A DNA stretch of 32,000 bases. Source: Staphylothermus hellenicus DSM 12710. GTDB taxonomy: Archaea; Thermoproteota; Thermoprotei_A; Sulfolobales; Desulfurococcaceae. The stretch is from the NCBI RefSeq assembly GCF_000092465.1, contig NC_014205.1:540001-572000 (forward strand), given 5' to 3'. The notes beneath the pieces are model-generated. The model saw only the letters and a list, made by a program, of their open reading frames with translations, ran no database searches and was not told where the DNA came from. Positions 1 to 11,920 of the stretch are shown here, piece by piece (positions within the stretch are counted from its first letter, which is position 1; every line of letters begins with the position of its first letter). A program made the translations under genes and the position numbers.

Positions 1-1
1 G

Positions 2-310
2 AGGGTTTCAAAAAAGGACTTCGTTGAAAGCATAGAAAACGTGAAAAAAGCTATAACTGATACACCGGCTAAAACAATAATCCTCGACCACCACATTGTC
101 AGAGATAAGAATTTCAAGGAAAAAATGAAGGAAATCTATGAATTAGCAGAGAAACACGGAAAAAAAGTATTAACAGCCGCTGAATACATGGGTCTCGAAA
201 ATTTACAGCTTGAAGCACTGAGAAAAGATATTAAGAAAGGAAAAGTCAAGCTTAACGAGCATGATATAGAGAATTACTATAAGAAACTATATTCTAAAAT
301 AAAGATCTAA
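2..310 (+). CDS. C-terminal part of a conserved archaeal protein, possibly metallo-beta-lactamase-fold hydrolase (UPF0282/COG2248-like); the 5' end lies outside the window
   Basis: The frame of the listed ORF 41..310 stays open back to nt 2 (RVSKKDFVESIENVKKAITD...), so the GTG at 41 is probably internal. The 'IILDHHIVRD' segment recalls the C-terminal His motif of MBL-like archaeal proteins. This is from memory and was not searched. Confidence 0.4.
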   Translation, partial: RVSKKDFVESIENVKKAITDTPAKTIILDHHIVRDKNFKEKMKEIYELAEKHGKKVLTAAEYMGLENLQLEALRKDIKKGKVKLNEHDIENYYKKLYSKIKI

Positions 311-962
311 CCCGCGAATGGGAAGCAAATATTTTATCTATTCTCTATTCTTCGGTGAAAAAAATAAAATATACAGTTAAAAACATAAACCCATACTTGC
401 TGCACACATATGGATACATAGAATATGCTTCCATAGATAGATATTACAAAGCACTACTTAGTTCTCTAGAGTTAAAACCATATGTGCCAAATAAAAAACC
501 TTGTCTCATCCATCCATCAATTAAACTGTAGTAAATGCCCATACAGAAACACATGCATATATGGCTTAACACGAAGCATCTTCAAGTACTCCAACGGTAT
601 TATCCAGTCAATAAGCTATATTCAAGGCAGAATACAGAAACACTTAACTAAAAGAATGAAGCATAGAAGCAAGCTCGAAGAAACAATAATGGATCTGATC
701 CTACGTGAAGATTTTAACAACATCCATAAAAGCTATACTGAACTAATAGGCTCCATAAAAAACACTGATTAATTCTAGAAAAACTAGTTAATGTAAATGC
801 TGCAGTGCTACAACCTTAATTCTTTTAAAAAGATGAAAGAATAATTATTTATAAGATTTTAATATAGCTATATGTTTGTATAGGCTATAATATTATAGTT
901 TTTGTTTTCAGCATATGTACTCTTTGGGAGTTTGGCGTTGGTGTCTAGCAGGGGTTAGAGTT

Positions 963-1313
963 CTAGTGTAGTTCTAGTTTGAGGCCCAAACTTCTTAGTC
1001 TTTCAAAATCTTTATCCTTGGTAACTAGTACATAGTTTCTTGATATAGATGTTGAGGCTATGAGTAGGTCTGCGTCTGGGATGAGTTGTCCCATATGCTT
1101 TAGTGAAGTATATAGTTCGCAGTACTTCATTATTACATCATTGTCTATGCCTATAACCTCATATATCCTTTCAAGAAGCTCCTTAACACGCTTTCTCTTA
1201 TGTTGCGGGACACCTCTTAGTACCTCAATAAGTGTAATAACCGATATTGCTCCTTCAACAAGTTCTCCCCGACGTAAATAATCTATCAACACACTTGTAT
1301 CATAGATCTTCAC
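963..1313 (-). CDS. vapC: PIN-domain ribonuclease, type II toxin VapC
   Basis: 116 aa with a GTG start. The N-terminus MKIYDTSVLIDYL carries the PIN acidic residue (D5). Later acidic positions (E30 region, 'DADLLIASTS', 'VTKDKDF') fit the PIN layout. The start overlaps the stop of an upstream small ORF in a GTGA junction, as is typical of vapBC pairs. Confidence 0.8.
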   Translation of the reverse strand: MKIYDTSVLIDYLRRGELVEGAISVITLIEVLRGVPQHKRKRVKELLERIYEVIGIDNDVIMKYCELYTSLKHMGQLIPDADLLIASTSISRNYVLVTKDKDFERLRSLGLKLELH

Positions 1314-1486
1314 CGTAGCCTAAACCCATCCCTAAAACTCTTGCTAGACCTAATAATCTCCTCATAATCCCTATCATCAAGGATTCTTCTAAGCTCCTCA
1401 AATGCCTCACGAATACTACTCCAATCACGCTCACCCTTCTCCCTCTCCAACAACTCCTTAACCTCCCTCAGCACTGAAACTTTCAA
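1310..1486 (-). CDS. vapB: small antitoxin-like protein (VapB candidate, ribbon-helix-helix-like); the start is uncertain (TTG 1486 inside the terminal CRISPR repeat, or GTG 1474)
   Basis: This ORF is not in the supplied track because it is under 60 aa. Minus-strand translation from TTG 1486 gives MKVSVLREVKELLEREKGERDWSSIREAFEELRRILDDRDYEEIIRSSKSFRDGFRLR. Its TGA (1310-1312) overlaps the vapC GTG (1311-1313). The frame is closed upstream by TGA at 1502-1504. A short strand (KVSV) followed by helices resembles small CopG/RHH-type PIN-associated antitoxins; this pattern is recalled, not searched. Confidence 0.55.
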   Translation of the reverse strand: MKVSVLREVKELLEREKGERDWSSIREAFEELRRILDDRDYEEIIRSSKSFRDGFRLR

Positions 1487-2091
1487 TTTTTCTAAATTGT
1501 TTCAATAGAAGCGGTTAAGAAGGGCTATTATCACATGGATCGCTTTCAATTTTTCTAAATTGTTTCGGTGTCTGTGTCTGGCTAGGAGTAGTTGTTTCTG
1601 ATCCACTACCTTTCAATTTTTCTAAATTGTTTCATATGTTTCCACTGCTATCAAGTGCTTTAACCCTTATTATCTTTCAATTTTTCTAAATTGTTTCTTT
1701 ACTTGGAAGCCGTGTGGGACATAGAATCTAACCGTTTGCTTTCAATTTTTCTAAATTGTTTCCAAACATTTTGAAAACACTTGATAATTCCCATAGGCTC
1801 CCTTTCAATTTTTCTAAATTGTTTCTTTATTACTAGATACCAATTGTTAAACCTTGCCTCAATTCTTTCAATTTTTCTAAATTGTTTCGCTCCATATTTG
1901 GCTTGACAAAAAGCTAAAAACGTTGATAACTCTTTCAATTTTTCTAAATTGTTTCCTCGGTCTAGCTGCTGCAAACAATGAAAGCATAAGCCCCTCTTCA
2001 CTTTCAATTTTTCTAAATTGTTTCGGGCAAGAGGGCAAGAGGGCAAAACAAACAATATATTGTTATGCTTTCAATTTTTCTAAATTGTTTC
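1480..2091 (-). CRISPR. CRISPR array with 10 identical 24-nt repeats and 9 spacers; no cas genes in the window
   Basis: The plus-strand repeat CTTTCAATTTTTCTAAATTGTTTC starts at 1480, 1543, 1610, 1674, 1739, 1802, 1865, 1932, 2001 and 2068. Spacers are 39, 43, 40, 41, 39, 39, 43, 45 and 43 nt, all different. Read on the minus strand the repeat is GAAACAATTTAGAAAAATTGAAAG, ending in ATTGAAAG, the 8-nt crRNA 5'-handle typical of crenarchaeal type I-A/III systems. The high-coordinate flank is extremely AT-rich non-coding DNA (leader-like), whereas the low-coordinate flank is coding. The array is therefore called minus, with the leader on the right. Confidence 0.95.
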
Positions 2092-2160
2092 TGTTCTTCA
2101 CTTTTTCATTGTTTATTTTAATTTTTGTTTTTGTATTTATGTTTTATCCTTGATAATTTG
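2092..2160 (-). promoter_or_regulatory. CRISPR leader-proximal region with TATA-like elements
   Basis: On the minus strand the region immediately upstream of the first repeat reads ...AAACATAAATACAAAAACAAAAATTAAAATAAACAATGAAAAAGTGAAGAACA|GAAAC.... TATA-like TTAAAATA (2114-2121) and ATAAATAC (2133-2140) lie 22 and 42 nt from the repeat. There is no coding potential. Confidence 0.45.
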
Positions 2161-2428
2161 ATGGTTTGTAATGGGTTTGATGAGGATCTAGTTGGGAAAA
2201 ACTTATATATTGAAACTTATGGTCTCCCGATCTATGCGGGGACTCTTCCATCGCATCTATTATCGATCTATTTTCTCTGTTATGATATTGCTAACTCTAT
2301 TTAGAACTCTGTTCTATTTCCCCACTATTAGGCTTTGATCGTTTTCCTCGTTTAGATCGGGATTCTTTTACACTATTGTTTTTGCTTGTTTTCTAGGATA
2401 TAGTTTGTTTTGCTCTCTACTTATCTCT

Positions 2429-2452
2429 CTTTCAATTCTTCTAGATTATTCC
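2429..2452 (-). repeat. solitary degenerate CRISPR repeat (20/24 identity) about 340 bp beyond the array, on the far side of the leader
   Basis: CTTTCAATTCTTCTAGATTATTCC compared with CTTTCAATTTTTCTAAATTGTTTC shows mismatches at repeat positions 10, 16, 20 and 23. It has the same orientation as the array. Confidence 0.6.
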
Positions 2453-2905
2453 TTGATATTCTCTCCTCCTAAAATCTTATTGAATTATGTTATCCTATAT
2501 GATGAAAACTTATGCTAATGAGGGGTTCTTAAAGGAGAAGCTGTTTAGGGCAAGCTACTCTATATGATAAAAACCAAATATATATTGTTTATTGTCTAAT
2601 GGAAAATTTTATGTATTATTGTATTTAGAATATATGTGGTTAGCAAACAAGAAGCTGTTGACTACCAGGAATGCCATTATGGTAGTAGTAATAAGGGTGA
2701 TTAGGCACATATTAGTTTATACCTTTTTATCTTTCTATATTTTTCCATATAGTATTTTTATATTGGACAAATACTGTTCGAAGGATTGGATAGGAGATTT
2801 TTTAATTTGCTTTTCTTATTCAGGATTTTAATTTTGTGAATGTGGTTAATTATTAAGAGTTATGAGATTAATAGATTAGCATAGTGGGGGAGGCTGGTGT
2901 AGTCG

Positions 2906-3424
2906 GTGAGCAGTTATATTGTTGAGAAATATGTGGTTGAGCTTGCTGATTCATTGTCTTATGTTAGGAGTATTGATGGGTTTCTTGTTAAGTTAGGGAC
3001 TATTGTTGTCTCGTTAGAGGATGATTGCCGTAATATAAGTAATTGTGACCCGGCTGTTTTATTGGAGAATATATTGATGCATGAAAAGTTGTCAAGGTAT
3101 TTATCAAGGTTTTCCTGCTACTTAGAGGATATTGTTGATGCTATAAATAGTGATCCTAGACATAAAGTGTTACGTAAATACATAGGTGTCTTACGAGGTG
3201 TCTTGGAGAGAATTAAATGTGTTGAGAGCCCCGGGATCCAGAAGACTACTCCTCCAGCTCTTTGGGTAAAAGAATATAGAGAGCAAATGAGACCGGTTAA
3301 ACCGGTACATAAGTTATCTTTGTATTTTAGATTAAAGAAAAATACAGAATCATCGTTGACAATGATATTACTATTATCTATAATACTATATGTTATATCA
3401 TTGATCATCTACTTATCCAAATAA
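2906..3424 (+). CDS. hypothetical protein with a C-terminal hydrophobic anchor
   Basis: 172-aa ORF with a GTG start, preceded by a GGGGGAGG SD-like motif (2886-2893). The C-terminus LTMILLLSIILYVISLIIYLSK looks like a single TM tail. No recognisable family motifs. Confidence 0.45.
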   Translation: MSSYIVEKYVVELADSLSYVRSIDGFLVKLGTIVVSLEDDCRNISNCDPAVLLENILMHEKLSRYLSRFSCYLEDIVDAINSDPRHKVLRKYIGVLRGVLERIKCVESPGIQKTTPPALWVKEYREQMRPVKPVHKLSLYFRLKKNTESSLTMILLLSIILYVISLIIYLSK

Positions 3425-3560
3425 TTTAGTTATCAAGCCTGGTCCGGAGTTAAAACTTTAACTATGTTATGGTCTTAACAGGTTAACTCTGTGTTATAGC
3501 CTGCGATCCACTATTGTTTCCCATATATTTTCTCATATACTAGAGGAGAATAGAAGAATA

Positions 3561-3600
3561 AGAAAGAAAAAGAAAAAGAGGTAGTATTTTATGTGAAAAA
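3561..3600 (-). terminator. oligo-T tracts downstream of the carbamoyltransferase gene
   Basis: The minus strand directly after the stop codon reads TTTTTCACATAAAATACTACCTCTTTTTCTTTTTCTTTCT. Archaeal termination typically uses T-runs. Confidence 0.4.
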
Positions 3601-4674
3601 TTACTTCTTACTACCCATTACCATTGCCATTACAGCTTTCTGTGCGTGCAGACGGTTTTCAGCTTCTTCGAAGTATAGGCTTTTCTCATAGCTGTCTAGT
3701 ACTTCATCTGTAACTTCTTGTCCACGGTCTGCTGGTCCACAGTGCATATAGTAGGGTTTGCCGGCTTTTTCTAGTCTCTCCATGGTTACTATCCAGTCCT
3801 TGAACTTTGCTTGATAAGCTTTAGCACCCTCCTTATCAACTACGTTGTTGAATGGTGGGAAGAACCCTTTCGGGCTCCAAGCCTTTGGATATACGAAGGT
3901 TGCTCCTTCGAATGCTTCATCCATATCATGTACTACTTTGAACTCGCTTCCCCAGTGCTCAGCGTATTGTTTAACCTTTGCAAGTACGTTATCTAATAAT
4001 TCAAATCCTGGTGGATGAGCAATGTATACGTCTGCTCCCAGCATAGCAGCTATTAATGCTACACTCTGTGGAACCGCTAATGGTTTTAGCCCGCCACTAT
4101 AAGCGTAGCTGACAACGAATTTCTTTCCTCTCAAATCCTTAGGCCATCCTAATGCTTCAAGAGCTGCTTGTGCATCAGCTAGTGCTTGGAATGGATGATA
4201 GATGTCGTCCTCCATGTTGAGCACTGGTATACTTGCCCACTTCGCGAATTCCTGTATAATCTTGTGTCCACGCCCAATAATCCATTTAGCAGCGTCTCCA
4301 TAGATACGTATAGCTATTCCACTACCATATCTGCTTAGAACTCGTGATACATCACGTATTGCTTCTGTCTGATATGGCACCATGTCTTCTGGGAGTGTTG
4401 GCCTATATACTTGGTCTGCGGCTATATAGATGCCTTGACCGCCTAACTGGTAGATTCCTGTTTGGAAACTGTTTCTTGTGCGGAGGCTCTTGTTGTAGAA
4501 TAGTAGATATAATGTTTTACCATCTAGCCAGTTAGCTTTCCTTATACCTTTATGATACATATCCTTTAGCTCTTTCGCTGCTTGTAGTACCTTGAATATA
4601 GTGTCTATATCGTAGTCGACATTTGTTAACCAATGTTTTCCTTCCAGGTATCCTAGGTACCAGGGTTCACTCAT
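3601..4674 (-). CDS. YgeW-type ('knotted') carbamoyltransferase family protein; substrate unknown
   Basis: Transcarbamylase motifs are present in variant form: SLRTRNSF (SxRTR), HPFQALAD (HPxQ) and YMHCGPADRGQEV (HCLP). The stretch RGKKFVVSYAYSGGLKPLAVPQS...YPKAWSP closely resembles my recollection of E. coli YgeW (KGKKIAMTWAYSPSYGKPLSVPQ...YPKSWAP). The longest ORF starts at TTG 4689, but ATG 4674 (MSEPWYLGYLEGK) is preferred: it has GGGG 9-12 nt upstream and a TATAAA box 35 nt upstream. Confidence 0.8.
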   Translation of the reverse strand: MSEPWYLGYLEGKHWLTNVDYDIDTIFKVLQAAKELKDMYHKGIRKANWLDGKTLYLLFYNKSLRTRNSFQTGIYQLGGQGIYIAADQVYRPTLPEDMVPYQTEAIRDVSRVLSRYGSGIAIRIYGDAAKWIIGRGHKIIQEFAKWASIPVLNMEDDIYHPFQALADAQAALEALGWPKDLRGKKFVVSYAYSGGLKPLAVPQSVALIAAMLGADVYIAHPPGFELLDNVLAKVKQYAEHWGSEFKVVHDMDEAFEGATFVYPKAWSPKGFFPPFNNVVDKEGAKAYQAKFKDWIVTMERLEKAGKPYYMHCGPADRGQEVTDEVLDSYEKSLYFEEAENRLHAQKAVMAMVMGSKK

Positions 4675-4709
4675 AATACTTTGCCCCAAGTCCTATTTGT
4701 CAGTATACA

Positions 4710-4715
4710 TTTATA
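4710..4715 (-). promoter_or_regulatory. TATA box candidate for the carbamoyltransferase gene
   Basis: The minus strand reads CTGTATAAATGTATAC, with TATAAA 35 nt upstream of ATG 4674. This implies a short 5' UTR. Confidence 0.35.
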
Positions 4716-4763
4716 CAGGTGGTTCAAGTATATATTATCTATGCTGATCACAGGGGAAACATA

Positions 4764-4805
4764 TAGTGTTGCTTTTGTAGTGTTTATTTGCTAGTGTTTC
4801 TGGGA
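4764..4805. repeat. three phased 14-nt direct repeats sharing a TAGTGTT core
   Basis: The three units are TAGTGTTGCTTTTG, TAGTGTTTATTTGC and TAGTGTTTCTGGGA, starting at 4764, 4778 and 4792. They lie in the divergent intergenic region. Confidence 0.5.
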
Positions 4806-4837
4806 GAGTTTATATGTGTGTTTGTCTAGATATTTTG

Positions 4838-4897
4838 TTTGATGATGAGGATTTGGATCCCGAGCCCAATATGTAGGGTTAGGCTAAGCCTGAATGG
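4838..4897 (+). ncRNA. possible box C/D sRNA (weak)
   Basis: C box AUGAUGA lies at 4842-4848, followed by an 11-nt guide, a D'-like CCGA at 4860-4863 and D box CUGA at 4890-4893. The overall spacing of about 52 nt fits archaeal C/D sRNAs. However, the C' box (AUGUAGG, 4871-4877) is poor and the D guide is self-complementary. Confidence 0.25.
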
Positions 4898-5056
4898 GCG
4901 CGGGGATTAGAAGTATCCGAAGATGTGGGGAGCAATCCGTTCCCCCCGAAAGCCCCTCAATGAAGCCTGAGAGGGGAAGGTTAGCCGTAGCATTTGTTGC
5001 ATTCGTATCTTTCGCTACGGCTAACCAGAACGGAACAGATATATCTGGACACGGTG
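4856..5056. ncRNA. G+C-rich, hairpin-dense island; candidate structured RNA of unknown class (strand undetermined)
   Basis: The island is visibly G/C-rich against AT-rich flanks. Hairpins: GGGGA(4927-4931)/TCCCC(4941-4945); CCCCTC(4953-4958)/GAGGGG(4971-4976) with the 12-nt loop AATGAAGCCTGA; and a perfect 13-bp stem GGTTAGCCGTAGC(4979-4991)/GCTACGGCTAACC(5014-5026) around a 22-nt AT-rich loop. The only ORF here (4884..5114, minus) looks spurious. Confidence 0.4.
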
Positions 5057-5142
5057 AAAAATAATTATGGATAATATGTAGCCGATAGAAATGCTGGTTT
5101 AACTGGGTAGGCATAGTAAATAGGTTTTAATGGCTGAATAAT

Positions 5143-6630
5143 ATGACCTATAAATACCCAATAATTCCTACAATAATAGATCCAGGCTCGCTTACCTATT
5201 TCGATCAATACAGAGAAGCAGCATTGATTATATATTTATACTCTGTTAAGGGAAAGAAACTCTCAAAGATGATACCCATATATTATCCCTTATTATTTAT
5301 TGAAGGATACAATAATAGAACATTCATAATAGATTATTTGAACAATAATGATTTTAAGCTCAAATATAAAATTCCTAATACCGACCATATCAAGTCTATT
5401 ACCCTAGATCCATTAAGCACTAATTCTTTAATCAGTATACGTAAGCTGCTCAAAGAATATGTTCGAGGAAAATATTCTCTAGAAGAAGAACTAGTATTGC
5501 CTAAAGTTATATCGAGCCGTTCAATTATTGATGAACTAGTAGAAATAGTGAGTAGGTGCGGATATGATACGCTTAGTGGATATGAAATAAACAATACACA
5601 TGCCAGCATAGATATAGATGAGTATATTGGTAAAGTAAACCAGTTCATATACCGCATCACTAAAACCGTCATGGATATTTTAAAGATGAACGAGGATCTC
5701 TCATATCAATTATTTATTGCCATAAACGATATTAAGGAAAAATACTCCAGAATCCATGGAAGAATAGATAGAAGCGTTAATGAAACACAAGAACTGATTA
5801 GAGAAAAAATTAATCTTCTAAGCACAGAAATGGTTTCAGAACTTAAAAGCACAGAGCATAGATACCGGAGAATGATTAGTAGTATAGAAATTCAAATTAG
5901 AACCATAGATAATGAGATCCATAGATTAATTAGTGAACAATCAATGTTTAGGGATAAAAAAAGACATGCTGAGCTCATCAAGGAGTTAGAGCATCAACAA
6001 AAAAGGCTTCGAGGAAAAATTAAGGAGTTGCAGAAGTCGCTTAGAAAAGATCTGGAATCGGTAAAAAATAAGTATACTAGGATGATCAGATCCGAGGAGA
6101 AAAGACTCGATCTAATAGAATCTGAGAAGGATAGGGTTTCTAGAAAAGCTGTTAGTTTAATAAATCATTTAACGGCTTCATTATCAGAGATCGAATCGTT
6201 ATCGCATAGTTTAATTGATAAGCTCCAATCATATATTAGGAGACTCGAAGAAATAACTATTATTACTCCCAAGATGAGGAGCGGTATATACTTTCTCAGA
6301 ACATATCTAGTGCAGGACACCGATAATAATTTCGAGATCATAACACCTTTAAAGATTGCTCCTAGCTATACAGGCAGAGATGTGCTAAGGACAAAATATT
6401 ATGTAAACACTAGAAGATATATTTTGTCTAAAAAAGTATTTAGGCAAATAATTGATCTTGCTAAGAACAATTATAGTGAACTAGTAAAACATGATCTGCT
6501 TAATAGGATTTCTTATGAAGATGTTAAGAATACTTTATATATTTTATCGAGGAATTATGAGAAACTAGCAAATATTAATCTCAAACATATAGATAGAATA
6601 GCTTCTAATAGTATGAATAAACAGAGATGA
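5143..6630 (+). CDS. hypothetical protein with a long central coiled-coil region
   Basis: 495 aa with an ATG start. The central ~200 residues are rich in heptad-like charged repeats (…ELIKELEHQQKRLRGKIKELQKSLRKDLESVKNKYTRMIRSEEKRLDLIESEKDRV…). They are flanked by globular-looking N- and C-terminal regions. The stop overlaps the next gene's ATG (ATGA at 6627-6630). Confidence 0.6.
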   Translation: MTYKYPIIPTIIDPGSLTYFDQYREAALIIYLYSVKGKKLSKMIPIYYPLLFIEGYNNRTFIIDYLNNNDFKLKYKIPNTDHIKSITLDPLSTNSLISIRKLLKEYVRGKYSLEEELVLPKVISSRSIIDELVEIVSRCGYDTLSGYEINNTHASIDIDEYIGKVNQFIYRITKTVMDILKMNEDLSYQLFIAINDIKEKYSRIHGRIDRSVNETQELIREKINLLSTEMVSELKSTEHRYRRMISSIEIQIRTIDNEIHRLISEQSMFRDKKRHAELIKELEHQQKRLRGKIKELQKSLRKDLESVKNKYTRMIRSEEKRLDLIESEKDRVSRKAVSLINHLTASLSEIESLSHSLIDKLQSYIRRLEEITIITPKMRSGIYFLRTYLVQDTDNNFEIITPLKIAPSYTGRDVLRTKYYVNTRRYILSKKVFRQIIDLAKNNYSELVKHDLLNRISYEDVKNTLYILSRNYEKLANINLKHIDRIASNSMNKQR

Positions 6631-7820
6631 CCTATGAATTGTCAGGTGAAGATAAACAGTATTTGAAGAAAAACATTTTAGCACTAGGCACGACAAGTCT
6701 CTTAACCGATATATCTAGTGAATCCGTTTACGCTGTTTTACCATTCTATATTCAAAGCCTAGGTTATGGAAAAGAAGTTGTAGGCCTCGTGGAGGGGGCT
6801 GGGGAGCTTGTTGCCAGCATATTTAAGTATTTGAGTGGATTCATTGCTAATAAAATACATAAATATAAGTTATTAGCCCTCATTGGTTACTCCTTATCTA
6901 ACTTTATCAAGCCATTCTTCTCTATTACTAAGAGCTCGTTAGGCATCTTGCTGGTTAAAATAATAGATAGAACAGGCAAGGGTGTAAGGACTTCTCCTAG
7001 AGACACATTGCTTGCAGCAAGTGCTAGTTCGAAATATAGGGGGAGAGCATTTGGTCTTCATAGAGCACTAGATACTGTTGGCGCGACTCTCGGCCCCTTA
7101 CTCGCTATATTTCTACTAATATATTTTGGATACATCGGTGTTTTCCTATTCAGCATAGTACCTGGATTAATCGCTATTCTAATATTGTTGTTTTTCGTTG
7201 AAGAAGTAGGTGAGAAGAAGATTGCTTCTAAGAAATCTGAGTCTTTGCAGACCAGTATGAGTCCGTATTTCTGGTTATTTGTTGCAACTGTTGCTGCTAG
7301 TGGCTTGGCAGGATATACTCAAGCCTACCTATTACTAAGAGCTAAGGAGATTGGTTGGAGTGAGGGGTTCTCTATATTGTTTCTAGTAATTGCTAATATT
7401 GTTTATGCATCTCTAGCTTACCCAATAGGTTTTATCAGTGATGTTAGAGGATTTGATAAATTATATCCATTAGTGTTTGTATTACAGTTTATAGGATCAA
7501 TTATAATAGTATTGTTTTCGCATAGCTATATAGCTATAGTTTTCTTCATTATATATGGTATATACATGGCTTTCCACGACACCCTGACAAGGATCATTAC
7601 GAGTTTCTATGTTAAGAAGAGTGTTAGAGCTAAAGCTTATGGATATATGCATGGTACATATGGGTTATCAGCTCTTATAGGCTACTATATTCTGGGCAGA
7701 ATATATGATTTAATGGGATACGCGTATGCCTTTACTTATTCTGCAATAGTAGCAGTTATAGGATTCACATTATCATTAATATTAATATATAAGACTAAAA
7801 ACATGGCCGGCGGGATCTAA
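6627..7820 (+). CDS. major facilitator superfamily (MFS) transporter
   Basis: 397 aa with many hydrophobic segments. The cytoplasmic loop motif IDRTGKGVRTSPRDTLLA is typical of an MFS_1 subfamily. The gene is tightly packed between its neighbours: a 4-nt overlap upstream and a 1-nt gap downstream. Confidence 0.8.
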   Translation: MTYELSGEDKQYLKKNILALGTTSLLTDISSESVYAVLPFYIQSLGYGKEVVGLVEGAGELVASIFKYLSGFIANKIHKYKLLALIGYSLSNFIKPFFSITKSSLGILLVKIIDRTGKGVRTSPRDTLLAASASSKYRGRAFGLHRALDTVGATLGPLLAIFLLIYFGYIGVFLFSIVPGLIAILILLFFVEEVGEKKIASKKSESLQTSMSPYFWLFVATVAASGLAGYTQAYLLLRAKEIGWSEGFSILFLVIANIVYASLAYPIGFISDVRGFDKLYPLVFVLQFIGSIIIVLFSHSYIAIVFFIIYGIYMAFHDTLTRIITSFYVKKSVRAKAYGYMHGTYGLSALIGYYILGRIYDLMGYAYAFTYSAIVAVIGFTLSLILIYKTKNMAGGI

Positions 7821-7821
7821 T

Positions 7822-8766
7822 ATGGTTACAAGCCTTAAAGGAAGAGACCTCTTAACACTAGCGGATTATTCCCGTGAAGAATTATTATTCATTATTGAAA
7901 CAGCTAAACAGCTCAAACAAAGATATCTAGCGGGTGAAAGAATTATTCCTCTACTTACAGGCAGGCACTTAGCAATGATTTTTGAAAAACCAAGTACGAG
8001 GACGAGGATAAGCTTTGAGACAGCTATGAGGGAGCTTGGCGGAGACGCTTTGTATCTTGGCTGGAAAGAACTCCAGCTAGGAAGAGGGGAGACTATTGAG
8101 GATACAGCTCGTGTTATATCTAGATATGTCGATGGTATTATGGCTCGAGTCTATGAGCATGAGAAACTCGAGAAACTTGCACGGTATAGCCGTGTACCCG
8201 TAATCAACGGGTTAAGTGATCTGCTGCATCCAGCTCAAGCATTAACGGATATCTATACTATAATGGAGAAGAAAGGATCTGATCTTAGGAAATTAAAGAT
8301 TGTATTCGTAGGAGATGGAGGCGACAATGTTCTCCACAGCTTAATGCTTGGAATAGGGATTCTAGGAGGCAAGATAATCATATCTTCTCCGAAAGGATAC
8401 GATCCCAATCCAAGAATCATTAAGTTATTCGAGGAAAAAGCCGTGCCAAATGGTGGAGAATACGAAATAATACGAGATCCTTATGAAGCAGTTAGAGATG
8501 CTGACGTAGTATATACTGATGTATGGGTTAGCATGGGGCAGGAGGCTGAAAAAGAGAAGAGAATAAAAGATCTGGAGCCATACCGTGTAACAGTTGAGTT
8601 AATGAAGCAAGCTAAGCCGGATGCTGTATTTATGCATTGTCTACCAGCACATAGAGGGCAAGAGGTTGTTGATGAAGTAATTGATGGTAAATGGAGTATT
8701 GTATGGGATCAAGCAGAGAACCGTAAACATGTACAAAAAGCTATTCTTGCACTCATCATTCCATAG
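7822..8766 (+). CDS. argF: ornithine carbamoyltransferase
   Basis: Canonical motifs are present: STRTRISFE, HPAQALTD, DVWVSMGQE (the OTC-specific DxxxSMG) and HCLPAHRGQEV. The length is 314 aa. Confidence 0.9.
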   Translation: MVTSLKGRDLLTLADYSREELLFIIETAKQLKQRYLAGERIIPLLTGRHLAMIFEKPSTRTRISFETAMRELGGDALYLGWKELQLGRGETIEDTARVISRYVDGIMARVYEHEKLEKLARYSRVPVINGLSDLLHPAQALTDIYTIMEKKGSDLRKLKIVFVGDGGDNVLHSLMLGIGILGGKIIISSPKGYDPNPRIIKLFEEKAVPNGGEYEIIRDPYEAVRDADVVYTDVWVSMGQEAEKEKRIKDLEPYRVTVELMKQAKPDAVFMHCLPAHRGQEVVDEVIDGKWSIVWDQAENRKHVQKAILALIIP

Positions 8767-8797
8767 AACAAGGTATACGCGTATATTAGAGAAACAA

Positions 8798-8809
8798 TTT
8801 TTATTTTTT
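8798..8809 (+). terminator. oligo-T terminator candidate after argF
   Basis: TTTTTATTTTTT lies 32 nt after the argF stop codon, and a 70-nt gap follows before the next gene. Confidence 0.45.
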
Positions 8810-8879
8810 CAAAAGATTATCTTTTTAAAAGCTGAAACATGTTTTATGAATTAGTTGTTTATTGTGATGGTGGAAAGAA

Positions 8880-11285
8880 ATGAGCCGATCATTTTATAGG
8901 ATCGTTGATAAGATTTATTTGTGGCTGGATAAAAGACCTGGTGCAGGTAAGGCATTAACATATCTTGTCTTATTATTAATTATTGTTTTCGGCATATATG
9001 TGCGTGGATTACCAGCTATAAATTATGGATTAGAGCTACATGCTAATGACCCATGGATCGAGTATTGGCAAGCGAACTATACAGTTACCCATGGCTTATT
9101 ATCATGGTATAGTCTAACAAGACAAAATCCCGATACACATATATTCTGGTATCCATGGGGCAGAGATTTTACTAGGTCAAGCTATCCAGGCCTCCCAATA
9201 TGGACTGCTTTAACTTATCCTCTTGTTAAACCATTTGGATTAACAATTAAGGATTGGATAGTTCTACAGCCATTATTGTTTGCAGTAATCGCTTTCATCA
9301 CTATATTTCTAGCAGCCAAAGAACTTACTAGGGGAAATATTTTCGCAGGCCTCTTCGCTGTCCTAATGTATGCTGTTGTTCCTGCCGCCAGTGATAGAAA
9401 TATTGTTGGTTTCGTTGAGAAGGAAGGTATAGCTTTAGGCTTCATATTCTTATTTATATATTTCTACGCTAAGCTGGCTAGGACTATAAACGATAAGGGG
9501 GCAGGGGGGACTGCTAAGATAAAATATGCTGTTCTAGCAGGTCTTTCAATGGCTGTTGTAGGATGGTTCTGGGGTGGATACAGCTATTTGCTTGGGAGCT
9601 TCATCTTATTCCTCATGCTATATCCGTTGTTTGCTCCTAAAGAGATAACTTTAGATTTTATAAAGTATAATATACTCGTAGTAGTTCTCTCACTATTATT
9701 TGTCAGTGTATCTCCTTCAATAATAGTTCATCTAGGACTATATCCATTCAGAATCCGTGGATTAGCAACATTAATGCTTGGACTATTGTTATTGCCTATA
9801 CTATTCTATCTACTCCATAACGGCTACAAGTATTTACATCTTAAGAAGCCATTGATCGGTGTATGGCATTATTTCGGAATACTAGTGATCGTAGTGATTG
9901 CTGGCCTAGCCCTTATCTCTGCGGGAGTAATCAATATTGGTGCCAGATATGCATGGGCTCTAGGTTTACACTTTGTTAAGGCTCCACCACTAGTTAGAAG
10001 TGTTGAAGAGCACCAACCAGCTATTCAATCAGCTGGAATACTGGGAGTACTTCATTCATGGGGTACAGGGGTTTACTGGTTATTCTTTGTTTCACCATTG
10101 TTCCTAGCATTTTTCGGGGCTCTATACTTACTATATAAGGGAGGAGCTGATCGAATATATGTTGCCATAGGCTTCCTACTCGCATTCTACGCATATTTCA
10201 ACGCTGCATACTTCGAAGCTTTAGCATCATCGTATGGATTATTAGTTGCAGGAATATTTTCAGGATACTTGTGGAGTAGAGTGGTTCCTACAAGACAGGA
10301 AATTAATGAGTGGAGGAGGGGGAGAGCAAGGATTAAGACTGATTCAGGATTCAGAATAATCGCTGGAGTACTGGTGGTTCTAGTATTTATTAATCTTGGA
10401 TTCAGCGGCTACAATATCTATGCACAATATGAAAACACAATATACTCGATAATGAGTGGTGGAGCACCAATCAATGCGCGCACGGATGCATGGTATCAAA
10501 CACTAGATTTCCTAAGAACAAATACTAGTAAGGATTCATTAGTTGTGGCTTGGTGGGATTATGGATACTGGATAAGCGTTGGCGCTCATAGAGCAACTGT
10601 TGCAGATGGTGCAACTCTTAACTCTACACAGATATCATTACTAGCAAAAATACTGACAGCAAAGAACTCGTCTGAAGCAGTAGAGCTTTTGAAGAAGCTG
10701 AAAGCACCAGTAAATAAGACGTACATTCTAGTTTTCGATGTTTTCCAGTTCCTGCCGCGGCAAGGTAATTCTTATATGGTATATCCTGTAAGAGCTGGGT
10801 TGATTATTGGATTAGTAGATATTCCTAAGAGTAGGTGGATGATAGAGATTGGCGGTAGGGATATGAGCGAATACTTCTACCTATACAGGGATCCAAGCGG
10901 CGGCGTGGTTCTTGCACCCAGATTTGATGAACCAGATACTCTACCATTAATATATAAGATCCTGGTAGACAGCATACTTTACCTGAACATTCAAGACAAG
11001 AACCATACATATTACTTTACATGGTATACAGGTACACCTACCACTTTAAGCTACGAGTATCTAAGTAGTCTTAGCAGGTATGGATTAAATATAAAGTATG
11101 AAATAGATGCTTATCAAACCAAGACGTTAACCTTGGCAGATAGACCTCTAGCCAATGATCCCTATATTAAGCCATATATGGTTATTGCTAAACCATTCTA
11201 TGGAATAACGCTTAGAAGCGGTGGATCACTTGTAGAAGTAATAAGTATTTATCAAGTAACGATGCCAAACACGACTGGAAGCTAA
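8880..11285 (+). CDS. aglB: archaeal oligosaccharyltransferase AglB (STT3 family)
   Basis: 801 aa. The N-terminal half is polytopic membrane, followed by a soluble C-terminal domain. The catalytic WWDYGYW motif is present (VVAWWDYGYWISVG). Confidence 0.9.
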   Translation: MSRSFYRIVDKIYLWLDKRPGAGKALTYLVLLLIIVFGIYVRGLPAINYGLELHANDPWIEYWQANYTVTHGLLSWYSLTRQNPDTHIFWYPWGRDFTRSSYPGLPIWTALTYPLVKPFGLTIKDWIVLQPLLFAVIAFITIFLAAKELTRGNIFAGLFAVLMYAVVPAASDRNIVGFVEKEGIALGFIFLFIYFYAKLARTINDKGAGGTAKIKYAVLAGLSMAVVGWFWGGYSYLLGSFILFLMLYPLFAPKEITLDFIKYNILVVVLSLLFVSVSPSIIVHLGLYPFRIRGLATLMLGLLLLPILFYLLHNGYKYLHLKKPLIGVWHYFGILVIVVIAGLALISAGVINIGARYAWALGLHFVKAPPLVRSVEEHQPAIQSAGILGVLHSWGTGVYWLFFVSPLFLAFFGALYLLYKGGADRIYVAIGFLLAFYAYFNAAYFEALASSYGLLVAGIFSGYLWSRVVPTRQEINEWRRGRARIKTDSGFRIIAGVLVVLVFINLGFSGYNIYAQYENTIYSIMSGGAPINARTDAWYQTLDFLRTNTSKDSLVVAWWDYGYWISVGAHRATVADGATLNSTQISLLAKILTAKNSSEAVELLKKLKAPVNKTYILVFDVFQFLPRQGNSYMVYPVRAGLIIGLVDIPKSRWMIEIGGRDMSEYFYLYRDPSGGVVLAPRFDEPDTLPLIYKILVDSILYLNIQDKNHTYYFTWYTGTPTTLSYEYLSSLSRYGLNIKYEIDAYQTKTLTLADRPLANDPYIKPYMVIAKPFYGITLRSGGSLVEVISIYQVTMPNTTGS

Positions 11286-11359
11286 AACATAATTAAACAT
11301 GATGTATCCATCTCCTTTTAATAAAATCTCTTATAGATAATTTAAGCGGGTGTAGCGTA

Positions 11360-11920
11360 TTGATATTTAGGCGTAAAAAGATTAATCCATACAAGGCGAC
11401 TTTATACGCTATTTACAATGTTAAGCAAGGCATGAGCCGTATAGAGGCTTTAATGGATAGAATTAAGAACCGTAGACGCCGCATGCTCGAAATAGCTGCG
11501 CAGCTTGAAATGCGTGGTGAAACATTTCTAGCCAAGAAATATGCATCTGAAATAGCAAAGCTGGACAAGATTCATTCGAGACTTGCAGATCTGAGATTGG
11601 TTCTTGAAAAAATAGTATTAAGCCTTGAATACGCTATGACCCTGCATAATTTCAAAGGTATAGCTAAGGAGGTTCTAAACTTAACTAATGAATTAAAGAA
11701 GCTTCCAGAAGCAACTATTCCAGACATAGGCTTGTTATTTGCTAATTTAGAATCAACTCTTAGAAGCCTAGAAGCGTCTAGCTATGAAATACCAGATATA
11801 AGTTATCCATCTATTATGGAGGACTATGGTGATTCTGAGAAAATACTTATGGAGGCTAGAGAAATTGTTAAGAAGAAGTTGGAGACAGAACTAGCTGTTA
11901 GTAATGATAACAATTATTAG
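11360..11920 (+). CDS. ESCRT-III / Snf7-family protein (CdvB paralog-like)
   Basis: 186 aa with a TTG start. It has a basic N-terminus (MIFRRKK) followed by a long helical hairpin pattern: ...RRRRMLEIAAQLEMRGETFLAKKYASEIAKLDKIHSRLADLRLVLEKIVLSLEYA...KEVLNLTNELKKLPE.... The tail is acidic. The layout matches Snf7/CdvB by eye, and there is no winged-helix extension. Confidence 0.55.
   Translation: MIFRRKKINPYKATLYAIYNVKQGMSRIEALMDRIKNRRRRMLEIAAQLEMRGETFLAKKYASEIAKLDKIHSRLADLRLVLEKIVLSLEYAMTLHNFKGIAKEVLNLTNELKKLPEATIPDIGLLFANLESTLRSLEASSYEIPDISYPSIMEDYGDSEKILMEAREIVKKKLETELAVSNDNNY

Follow-up and report, generated by a model that had tools for sequence, protein, structure and literature searches.

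The 32,000 nucleotides (nt) analysed here, referred to as the window (Staphylothermus hellenicus DSM 12710, contig NC_014205.1, positions 540,001–572,000), hold a vapBC toxin–antitoxin (TA) pair whose antitoxin open reading frame (ORF), Shell_0589, is fused to the last repeat of a CRISPR array. This repeat–vapB fusion is probably the scar of a rearrangement, which would have left vapBC expressed from the array side and vapB reduced to a stub of 47 residues, read from a start codon led by a Shine–Dalgarno (SD) sequence, without any selected coupling between both systems. Within a 3.3-kb variable island, a small orphan array would have become linked, by its leader-distal end, to codon 7 of vapB through a deletion or an illegitimate recombination, with removal of the TATA box, an operator-like palindrome, the SD sequence, the TTG start and the first six codons. 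A separate in-frame deletion of 39 nt would have shortened the long second helix by 13 residues in its first half. The coupling of vapBC to the array is best read as a by-product of that event, with no sign of a selected design.

The array (1480–2091, minus strand, on which all the features located below are read) is composed of ten exact copies of a 24-nt repeat (CTTTCAATTTTTCTAAATTGTTTC on the plus strand), where none is expected from shuffled sequences, and nine spacers of 39–45 nt, with a start-to-start spacing between repeats of 63–69 nt. This composition agrees with the usual description of a CRISPR, which asks for at least three near-identical direct repeats of 24–37 nt and for spacers that are unique and alike in length. 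In minus-strand reading, the repeat (GAAACAATTTAGAAAAATTGAAAG) opens with GAAAC and ends in the 8 nt ATTGAAAG, the tag of crenarchaeal CRISPR RNAs (crRNAs); crenarchaeal repeats are cut by Cas6 8 nt from their 3' end, leaving AUUGAAAG. The terminal, leader-distal repeat (1480–1503) is a perfect copy, with ATTGAAAG at 1487–1480 and the putative Cas6 cut between 1488 and 1487. At the other end of the array lies an A/T-rich non-coding leader of ~340 nt (2092–2428), where a TATA-like TTAAAATA (2121–2114) predicts, by a consensus match only, a transcription start at ~2095–2092, just ahead of the first repeat. Because the far side is non-coding and bears this TATA-like element, while the near side adjoins coding sequence, the minus-strand orientation of the array, the same as that of vapBC, and the position of 1503–1480 as its last repeat are well supported, in agreement with the first-pass annotation of this DNA. 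An Rfam scan of 900–3000 at E ≤ 1 returned no family and no CRISPR-DR match, and therefore makes no independent call on the orientation of the repeat. An exact search for the repeat in metagenome contigs gave zero matches.

At the junction, the last repeat (1503 to 1480) is followed by TTTCA (1479–1475) and then by GTG (1474–1472). The vapB frame reads TGA (1504–1502) AAC AAT TTA GAA AAA TTG (1486–1484) AAA GTT TCA GTG (1474–1472), and the longest vapB ORF in the ORF listing (1310–1486, 58 residues) starts at this TTG. The first-pass annotation was accurate in placing the last repeat 5 nt from GTG 1474, with the frame open into the repeat and TTG 1486 in frame. On its own, the in-frame TTG is unremarkable, as every repeat has a TTG that falls in frame for one third of the junction phases (p about 1/3). 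Native vapB homology (ATA TCN GTN) begins within TTTCA (1475–1479), 0–5 nt from the repeat edge. An 11-nt palindrome, TGAAA-G-TTTCA (1475–1485), is centred on the last base of the repeat, and may be due to chance or be a trace of the formation of the junction. The junction RNA does not fold into any structure beyond those of shuffled sequences (z = 0.63). A loose likeness between TTGAAAG in the repeat and the native start TTG-AGA-AAG was also considered, and was set aside because the product does not suit a simple microhomology join.

The original form of this antitoxin gene can be read from its relatives. Scans of genome and metagenome collections based on VapC yielded 141 related loci, 102 of which encode a VapB of the 75-residue PF02697 type. 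All of these 102 proteins are 74–78 residues long (exactly 75 in 93 of them); a tyrosine occupies position 4 in 99, and 82 use a TTG start. In the family alignment, the native N-terminus is M-x-K-Y-x-T-I-S-V-L-R-E-V, and PF02697 is matched by all 45 members aligned. The closest relative of the window protein is P0002, a PF02697 member encoded upstream of a 116-residue VapC in contig L001, which is found with a BLASTP E value of 2e-27, with a 13-residue gap and a missing N-terminus in the window VapB. The DNA alignment between the window and L001 is continuous, at ~80% identity overall, from the vapC stop to TCAGTG, and ends at the repeat edge.

Four elements are shared by 15 of 15 homologous upstream regions aligned, namely a TTTATAG-type TATA box about 40 nt ahead of the start, a palindrome (TAGTTA..TAACTA), the SD sequence GGTGAT 5 nt before the start, and the start codon. 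The same block of TATA box, palindrome, GGTGAT and TTG is seen upstream of vapB in L001–L014 and L036–L038 (for instance, at 5690–5770 of L004). By analogy with autoregulated type II TA systems, the palindrome appears operator-like, and the block as a whole is likely to be an autoregulatory operator of the vapB family, which to our knowledge has not been characterised. In the window, the native TATA box, palindrome, SD sequence, TTG start and codons 1–6 are all replaced by the last repeat and spacer sequence, so that the promoter and operator present in the 15 homologous regions are not found there. Nor is the native 5' segment located elsewhere in the window, where the best nhmmer match has E = 0.086. 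Had the array simply inserted into vapB, the promoter and the 5' codons would have been displaced to another place; this possibility was therefore rejected, and a deletion or rearrangement is favoured.

Compared with the PF02697/PIN VapBC cassettes of Thermoproteota and Bathyarchaeia (75-residue VapB and 116-residue VapC), the window pair is still recognisable by a VapC with 50–72% protein identity, by the VapB segments ISVLREVKELLE.EKG.RDWS and AFEELRR.L...D.EEI.RSS..FR..F.L., and by the stop/start overlap common to both. Unlike these cassettes, it has no promoter, palindrome, SD sequence, TTG start, residues 2–5 or 13 of the core residues, nor a PF02697 score; the 58-residue form matches no Pfam family, PF02697 included, even at E ≤ 10. 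The remnant ORF (1310–1486) lacks family residues 2–5 and carries the changes T6K and I7V, so that three nearly invariant residues (Y4, T6 and I7) are missing. The 39-nt in-frame deletion maps to 1412–1414, where an Ile codon stands in place of F-L-L-E-L-Y/L-R-E-A-K-x-x-R-A, and the 13 residues removed are present in every homologue. The 33 C-terminal residues, on the other hand, are well conserved. No other VapB combining this truncation and deletion emerged when 1.84 billion representatives were searched exhaustively with HMMER; the other 47-residue match (P0172) is a fragment that retains the native N-terminus.

The fusion with a CRISPR array is likewise seen at no other locus among the 141. 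As the fusion is unique to the S. hellenicus genome, conservation offers no argument for a coupling under selection. Within the flanks fetched for the 141 loci, only one further family member has an array nearby: in L013 (Candidatus Terraquivivens), a CRISPR-like array of 68 repeats (7698–11779) is separated by 1.35 kb from the vapBC homologue, downstream of it and on the far side of vapC.

With the native promoter elements absent and replaced by repeat and spacer, the sequence gives good support to the conclusion that vapBC lacks a promoter of its own, and that transcription of the pair must come from within or through the array; the proposal of the first-pass annotation that there is no room for such a promoter has held. 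Transcription only from the array side may take the form of read-through of the precursor crRNA (pre-crRNA), of initiation within the last repeat, at a cryptic TATA-like element, or of both. This element, TTTAGAAA, follows AAACAA in every repeat (1489–1496 in the last one) and, by a consensus match only, differs from TTTAWAWA at one position; the copy in the last repeat predicts a start at about 1470–1467. Cryptic promoters inside crenarchaeal arrays are real and are suppressed by Cbp1 (PMC10883916), and S. hellenicus encodes the related Cbp2 (PMC3597662). As in the arrays where such promoters have been described (PMC10883916, PMC3315313, PMC3597662), the repeats and spacers of the window are AT-rich and bear TATA-like motifs. 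Nevertheless, transcripts from cryptic array promoters are regarded as spurious, whereas in the window an active start of this type would provide a protein-coding operon with its sole available promoter.

Leader-driven transcription may be curtailed before it reaches the distal spacers and vapBC by two runs of five Ts in the third spacer from the leader (1908–1920; 1920–1916 and 1912–1908), which are possible partial terminators of pre-crRNA read-through. No other sense-strand run of this kind occurs between 1908 and the vapC stop, and the first one downstream of vapC (827–831) is likely to be an archaeal terminator. A scan for sigma-70 promoters and hairpin terminators was set aside, as it is irrelevant to an archaeon.

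The toxin gene vapC (963–1313) is intact and encodes a PIN-domain protein of 116 residues (PF01850, E = 2.6e-10). Among 23 aligned sequences, this protein keeps every residue conserved in at least 90%, except for L3I, which is common to L001, and it therefore retains what is expected of a toxin of this type. Its GTG start overlaps the TGA stop of vapB (GTGA, 1313–1310), in the usual VapBC arrangement of a coupled upstream antitoxin gene, and its translation would proceed through stop–start coupling with vapB. The vapB gene holds neither a frameshift nor a stop, and its internal deletion is in frame. Nei-Gojobori omega values against L001 are 0.11 for vapB, 0.056 for its 33 C-terminal codons and 0.19 for vapC. 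Taken together, intact frames and omega values are compatible with a continued function of vapBC.

These data also bear on the view that the locus is a silent relic, in which vapBC is not meaningfully expressed, or in which VapB does not function and VapC is either tolerated or left untranslated, with the open frame being accidental. This view is in keeping with the loss of all the native expression signals, the deletion in the core of VapB and the lost PF02697 match, the one-in-three chance of an in-frame TTG, the 69 pseudogenes annotated in S. hellenicus (PMC3236042), and the possibility that the T runs within the array halt read-through. However, it does not account well for a fully intact VapC with its conserved residues kept, for a vapB free of frameshifts and stops whose deletion is in frame, or for the low omega of the 33 C-terminal residues of VapB. 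Complete silence is also unlikely, as the stretch from the last six repeats to vapB contains no terminator, and a TATA-like element is borne by each repeat. A silent relic is consequently considered a doubtful explanation, although one with some claim to attention.

The C-terminal part of characterised VapB proteins is the toxin-binding region. An AlphaFold2 (AF2) monomer model of P0002 (mean pLDDT 80.5) holds helices at 11–25, 30–56 and 59–77, with no strand, and the 13 residues deleted from the window protein correspond to the first half of its long second helix (30–56), modelled with high confidence. Some members of the family are named 'CopG family antitoxin' by the Joint Genome Institute (JGI). 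A ribbon-helix-helix (RHH) antitoxin of the CopG/Arc/MetJ kind would have an N-terminal β-strand and two helices. A Foldseek search of the AF2 model against the Protein Data Bank (PDB) returned nothing significant (best match VapB12, E = 4.2), a PDB sequence search with the VapB family profile returned nothing, and hhalign against a CopG sequence gave a probability of 7%, so that an RHH fold of this VapB family could not be confirmed.

The first-pass annotation had argued that starting at TTG 1486 restores a β-strand of an RHH antitoxin. Homologues indeed align from two residues upstream of the Val encoded by GTG 1474, with the I-S-V of the family facing V-S-V in the window, and not merely from that Val or later. 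Nevertheless, the argument is weak, as Y4, T6 and I7 are lost, 13 residues of the second helix are deleted and the RHH fold is unconfirmed. Residues are missing from the N-terminal DNA-binding part of VapB, and the DNA it would bind is likewise absent. Under the proposal of a rearrangement scar, the 47-residue stub would still neutralise VapC, while no longer binding DNA.

Three codons are candidates for the start of vapB, and they differ in their predicted pairing with the ribosome. TTG 1486 (1484–1486), inside the repeat, would give a protein of 58 residues (MKVSVLREV...), and GTG 1474 (1472–1474) one of 54; their SD duplexes reach only −0.7 and −0.9 kcal/mol, respectively, which means that neither has an SD sequence. 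TTG 1453 (1451–1453), the annotated start of Shell_0589, would give 47 residues and is preceded, at a distance of 8 nt, by the SD-like AGGGAGG-T (1462–1468), which is predicted to form a duplex of −9.3 kcal/mol with the anti-SD sequence (TTG 1450 likewise). Duplexes of −6 kcal/mol or stronger are found at 15 of 24 genes in the window, compared with only 7% of all NTG triplets, and the native TTG start of the VapB family is likewise led by an SD sequence. Moreover, GGGAGGT would face ribosomes on an RNA started at ~1467–1470, on a read-through RNA and on a Cas6-cut RNA alike. Translation is hence most likely to begin at TTG 1453, with TTG 1486 and GTG 1474 as less likely starts. In the deposited annotation, Shell_0589 comprises the 47 residues from TTG 1453, the gene caller having stopped short of the repeat. 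This annotation should be handled with caution, as forms of 47, 54 and 58 residues are not distinguishable from sequence.

The probably leaderless genes of the window have a TATA box starting 26–29 nt before the start codon, and some of them seem to use TTG. No such box precedes TTG 1486, where a direct reading of 1515–1508 gives ACCGCTTC, which is not TATA-like, and the TTTAGAAA of the last repeat begins only 22 nt upstream of GTG 1474. The spacing thus gives no support to leaderless primary transcripts that start at either codon.

The most specific claim of the first-pass annotation concerns TTG 1486. According to this claim, vapBC would be a 3' extension of the pre-crRNA, from which the Cas6 cut frees an almost leaderless messenger beginning A-UUG-AAA-G... 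and encoding a 58-residue VapB, thereby tying the TA pair to CRISPR processing. Several observations agree with it: TTG 1486 lies in a frame that is open into the repeat; vapBC lacks its own promoter, and no T run separates the distal array from vapB; V-S-V aligns with I-S-V; TTG is the native start of the family; and TTG starts are common in Staphylothermus, UUG being the start codon of 33% of the genes of S. marinus (PMC2678158), and seem to be used by some probably leaderless genes of the window. Against it, TTG 1486 has no SD sequence, which most genes in the window possess. The product of Cas6 carries a 5' OH, and its UUG would lie within the 8-nt handle, where Cas effector complexes would compete with ribosomes for binding. 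Leaderless mRNAs, by contrast, normally carry a 5' triphosphate, and UUG is avoided on fully leaderless mRNAs of S. solfataricus (PMC7531240). In addition, the T runs in the third spacer may curtail the read-through required, the restored strand would belong to a domain devoid of 13 core residues and of its operator, and the fusion is found only in the S. hellenicus genome. A messenger of this kind finds no support in the analysis: of the three start options, initiation at TTG 1486 after Cas6 cleavage is possible but the least favoured, and the model as a whole is quite unlikely.

A functional association between TA pairs and CRISPR has precedents, against which the fusion can be compared. In Sulfolobales, vapBC pairs are common in CRISPR-cas regions (Garrett et al. 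2015, PMC4390879), and the window resembles them in having a type II TA pair beside CRISPR components in a variable region. However, the TA pairs of Sulfolobales are complete, self-promoted and located among cas genes, whereas here an orphan array, for which the scanned segment 1–11285 shows no cas genes, has the pair fused to its last repeat. In concept, the locus is also reminiscent of CreTA (PMC9458426, PMC8501985), where control of a toxin is linked to CRISPR repeats and Cas6 processing. In CreTA, nonetheless, the toxin is an RNA, and a crRNA-like antitoxin RNA directs Cascade to the promoter of this toxin, which is thereby repressed; here both partners are proteins, homologous to VapB and VapC, no guide–target relation exists, and the locus lacks any toxin promoter of its own that could serve as a target. 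The arrangement found here does not appear in a 2025 review of TA–CRISPR coupling.

On the basis of these precedents, an addiction-type coupling favoured by selection can be envisaged, where survival depends on transcription of the array, and loss or silencing of the array unbalances VapB and VapC, as a protein analogue of CreTA. The proposal that TA pairs stabilise CRISPR-cas loci in Sulfolobales (PMC4390879), the existence of CreTA as a CRISPR–TA coupling (PMC9458426, PMC8501985), and the dependence of both antitoxin and toxin on array-side transcription in the window would all be in line with it. Yet toxin and antitoxin share a transcript and would be lost together, so that classical post-segregational killing is the most that could result; no cas genes accompany the orphan array in 1–11285; the arrangement occurs once among 141 related loci, with no conservation; and the 2025 review is silent on vapBC and on co-transcription. 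Such a coupling is judged very improbable indeed. A further reading, in which vapBC would form the 3' tail of the CRISPR transcript, with its 5' end and possibly its start set by the Cas6 cut, and in which the VapB:VapC balance would depend on array transcription, Cbp2 and crRNA processing, so that an accident was later kept as a protein counterpart of CreTA, is speculative and also improbable.

Some observations weigh against the interpretation of the fusion as an expressed rearrangement scar. There is no convincing microhomology at the junction. The source of the transcript and the start codon of vapBC are inference only. A G lies in the core of TTTAGAAA, which may be inactive, and Cbp2 may suppress it. 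The anti-SD sequence was deduced from window motifs rather than read from the 16S gene, and GGGAGGT is also coding sequence in the homologues, so that it was not created for initiation. Pairwise omega cannot date the truncation, and continued function of vapB is consequently not proven. Nor did the genome and metagenome collections contain any vapC relative above 72% protein identity (neither S. hellenicus nor S. marinus was returned), and the truncation therefore cannot be dated or polarised with a close strain.

Upstream of the leader, 337 nt past the leader-proximal repeat, sits a degenerate repeat, CTTTCAATTCTTCTAGATTATTCC (2429–2452), which by direct reading is identical to the array repeat at 20 of 24 positions. 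An earlier array, otherwise lost, probably left it behind as its decayed terminal repeat, which indicates that terminal repeats do decay in the S. hellenicus lineage. That the terminal repeat beside vapB is perfect would accordingly point to a loss of the array's real distal end in the event that made the fusion, and fits a recent loss. No cas domain was found in ten scanned ORFs covering 1–11285, where the scan ended. In Staphylothermus, dispersed small arrays without cas genes are normal, as illustrated by S. marinus, which holds twelve small arrays, most of them far from cas genes (PMC2678158).

The island itself (311–3584) has no counterpart in the related Staphylothermus-like contig L062. 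In this contig (4237–6380), a gene for a metallo-β-lactamase (MBL)-fold protein and a carbamoyltransferase-like gene are co-directional and 128 nt apart, whereas in the window (1–310 and 3585–4689) they are 3.3 kb apart and mutually inverted. The breakpoint of this inversion coincides with the array/vapBC island, and the inversion possibly arose from recombination between dispersed arrays with the same repeat. Scans of the island for tRNAs and of its ORFs against PHROGs returned nothing, and there is therefore no evidence of an integrated element. Beyond the island, two carbamoyltransferase paralogues (3601–4689 and 7822–8766) bracket a 495-residue coiled-coil protein, to which no function was assigned, and a major facilitator superfamily (MFS) transporter, in an arrangement conserved in L062; one of the paralogues is closest to models of N-acetylornithine carbamoyltransferase, and the other is a clear ornithine carbamoyltransferase.

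The finding concerns one locus in one genome, where an ordinary TA cassette and an ordinary array, best read as joined by accident in a scar, are of modest interest as a natural experiment. If vapBC is expressed from the array, it would represent a natural case in which read-through of the pre-crRNA, or a cryptic promoter borne by a repeat, drives an operon that codes for proteins, and it would bear on how much transcription leaves the distal ends of arrays and on whether the 3' fragments cut by Cas6 may serve as mRNAs. An expressed locus would likewise be a natural test of whether the C-terminal segment of VapB suffices to restrain a PIN toxin.

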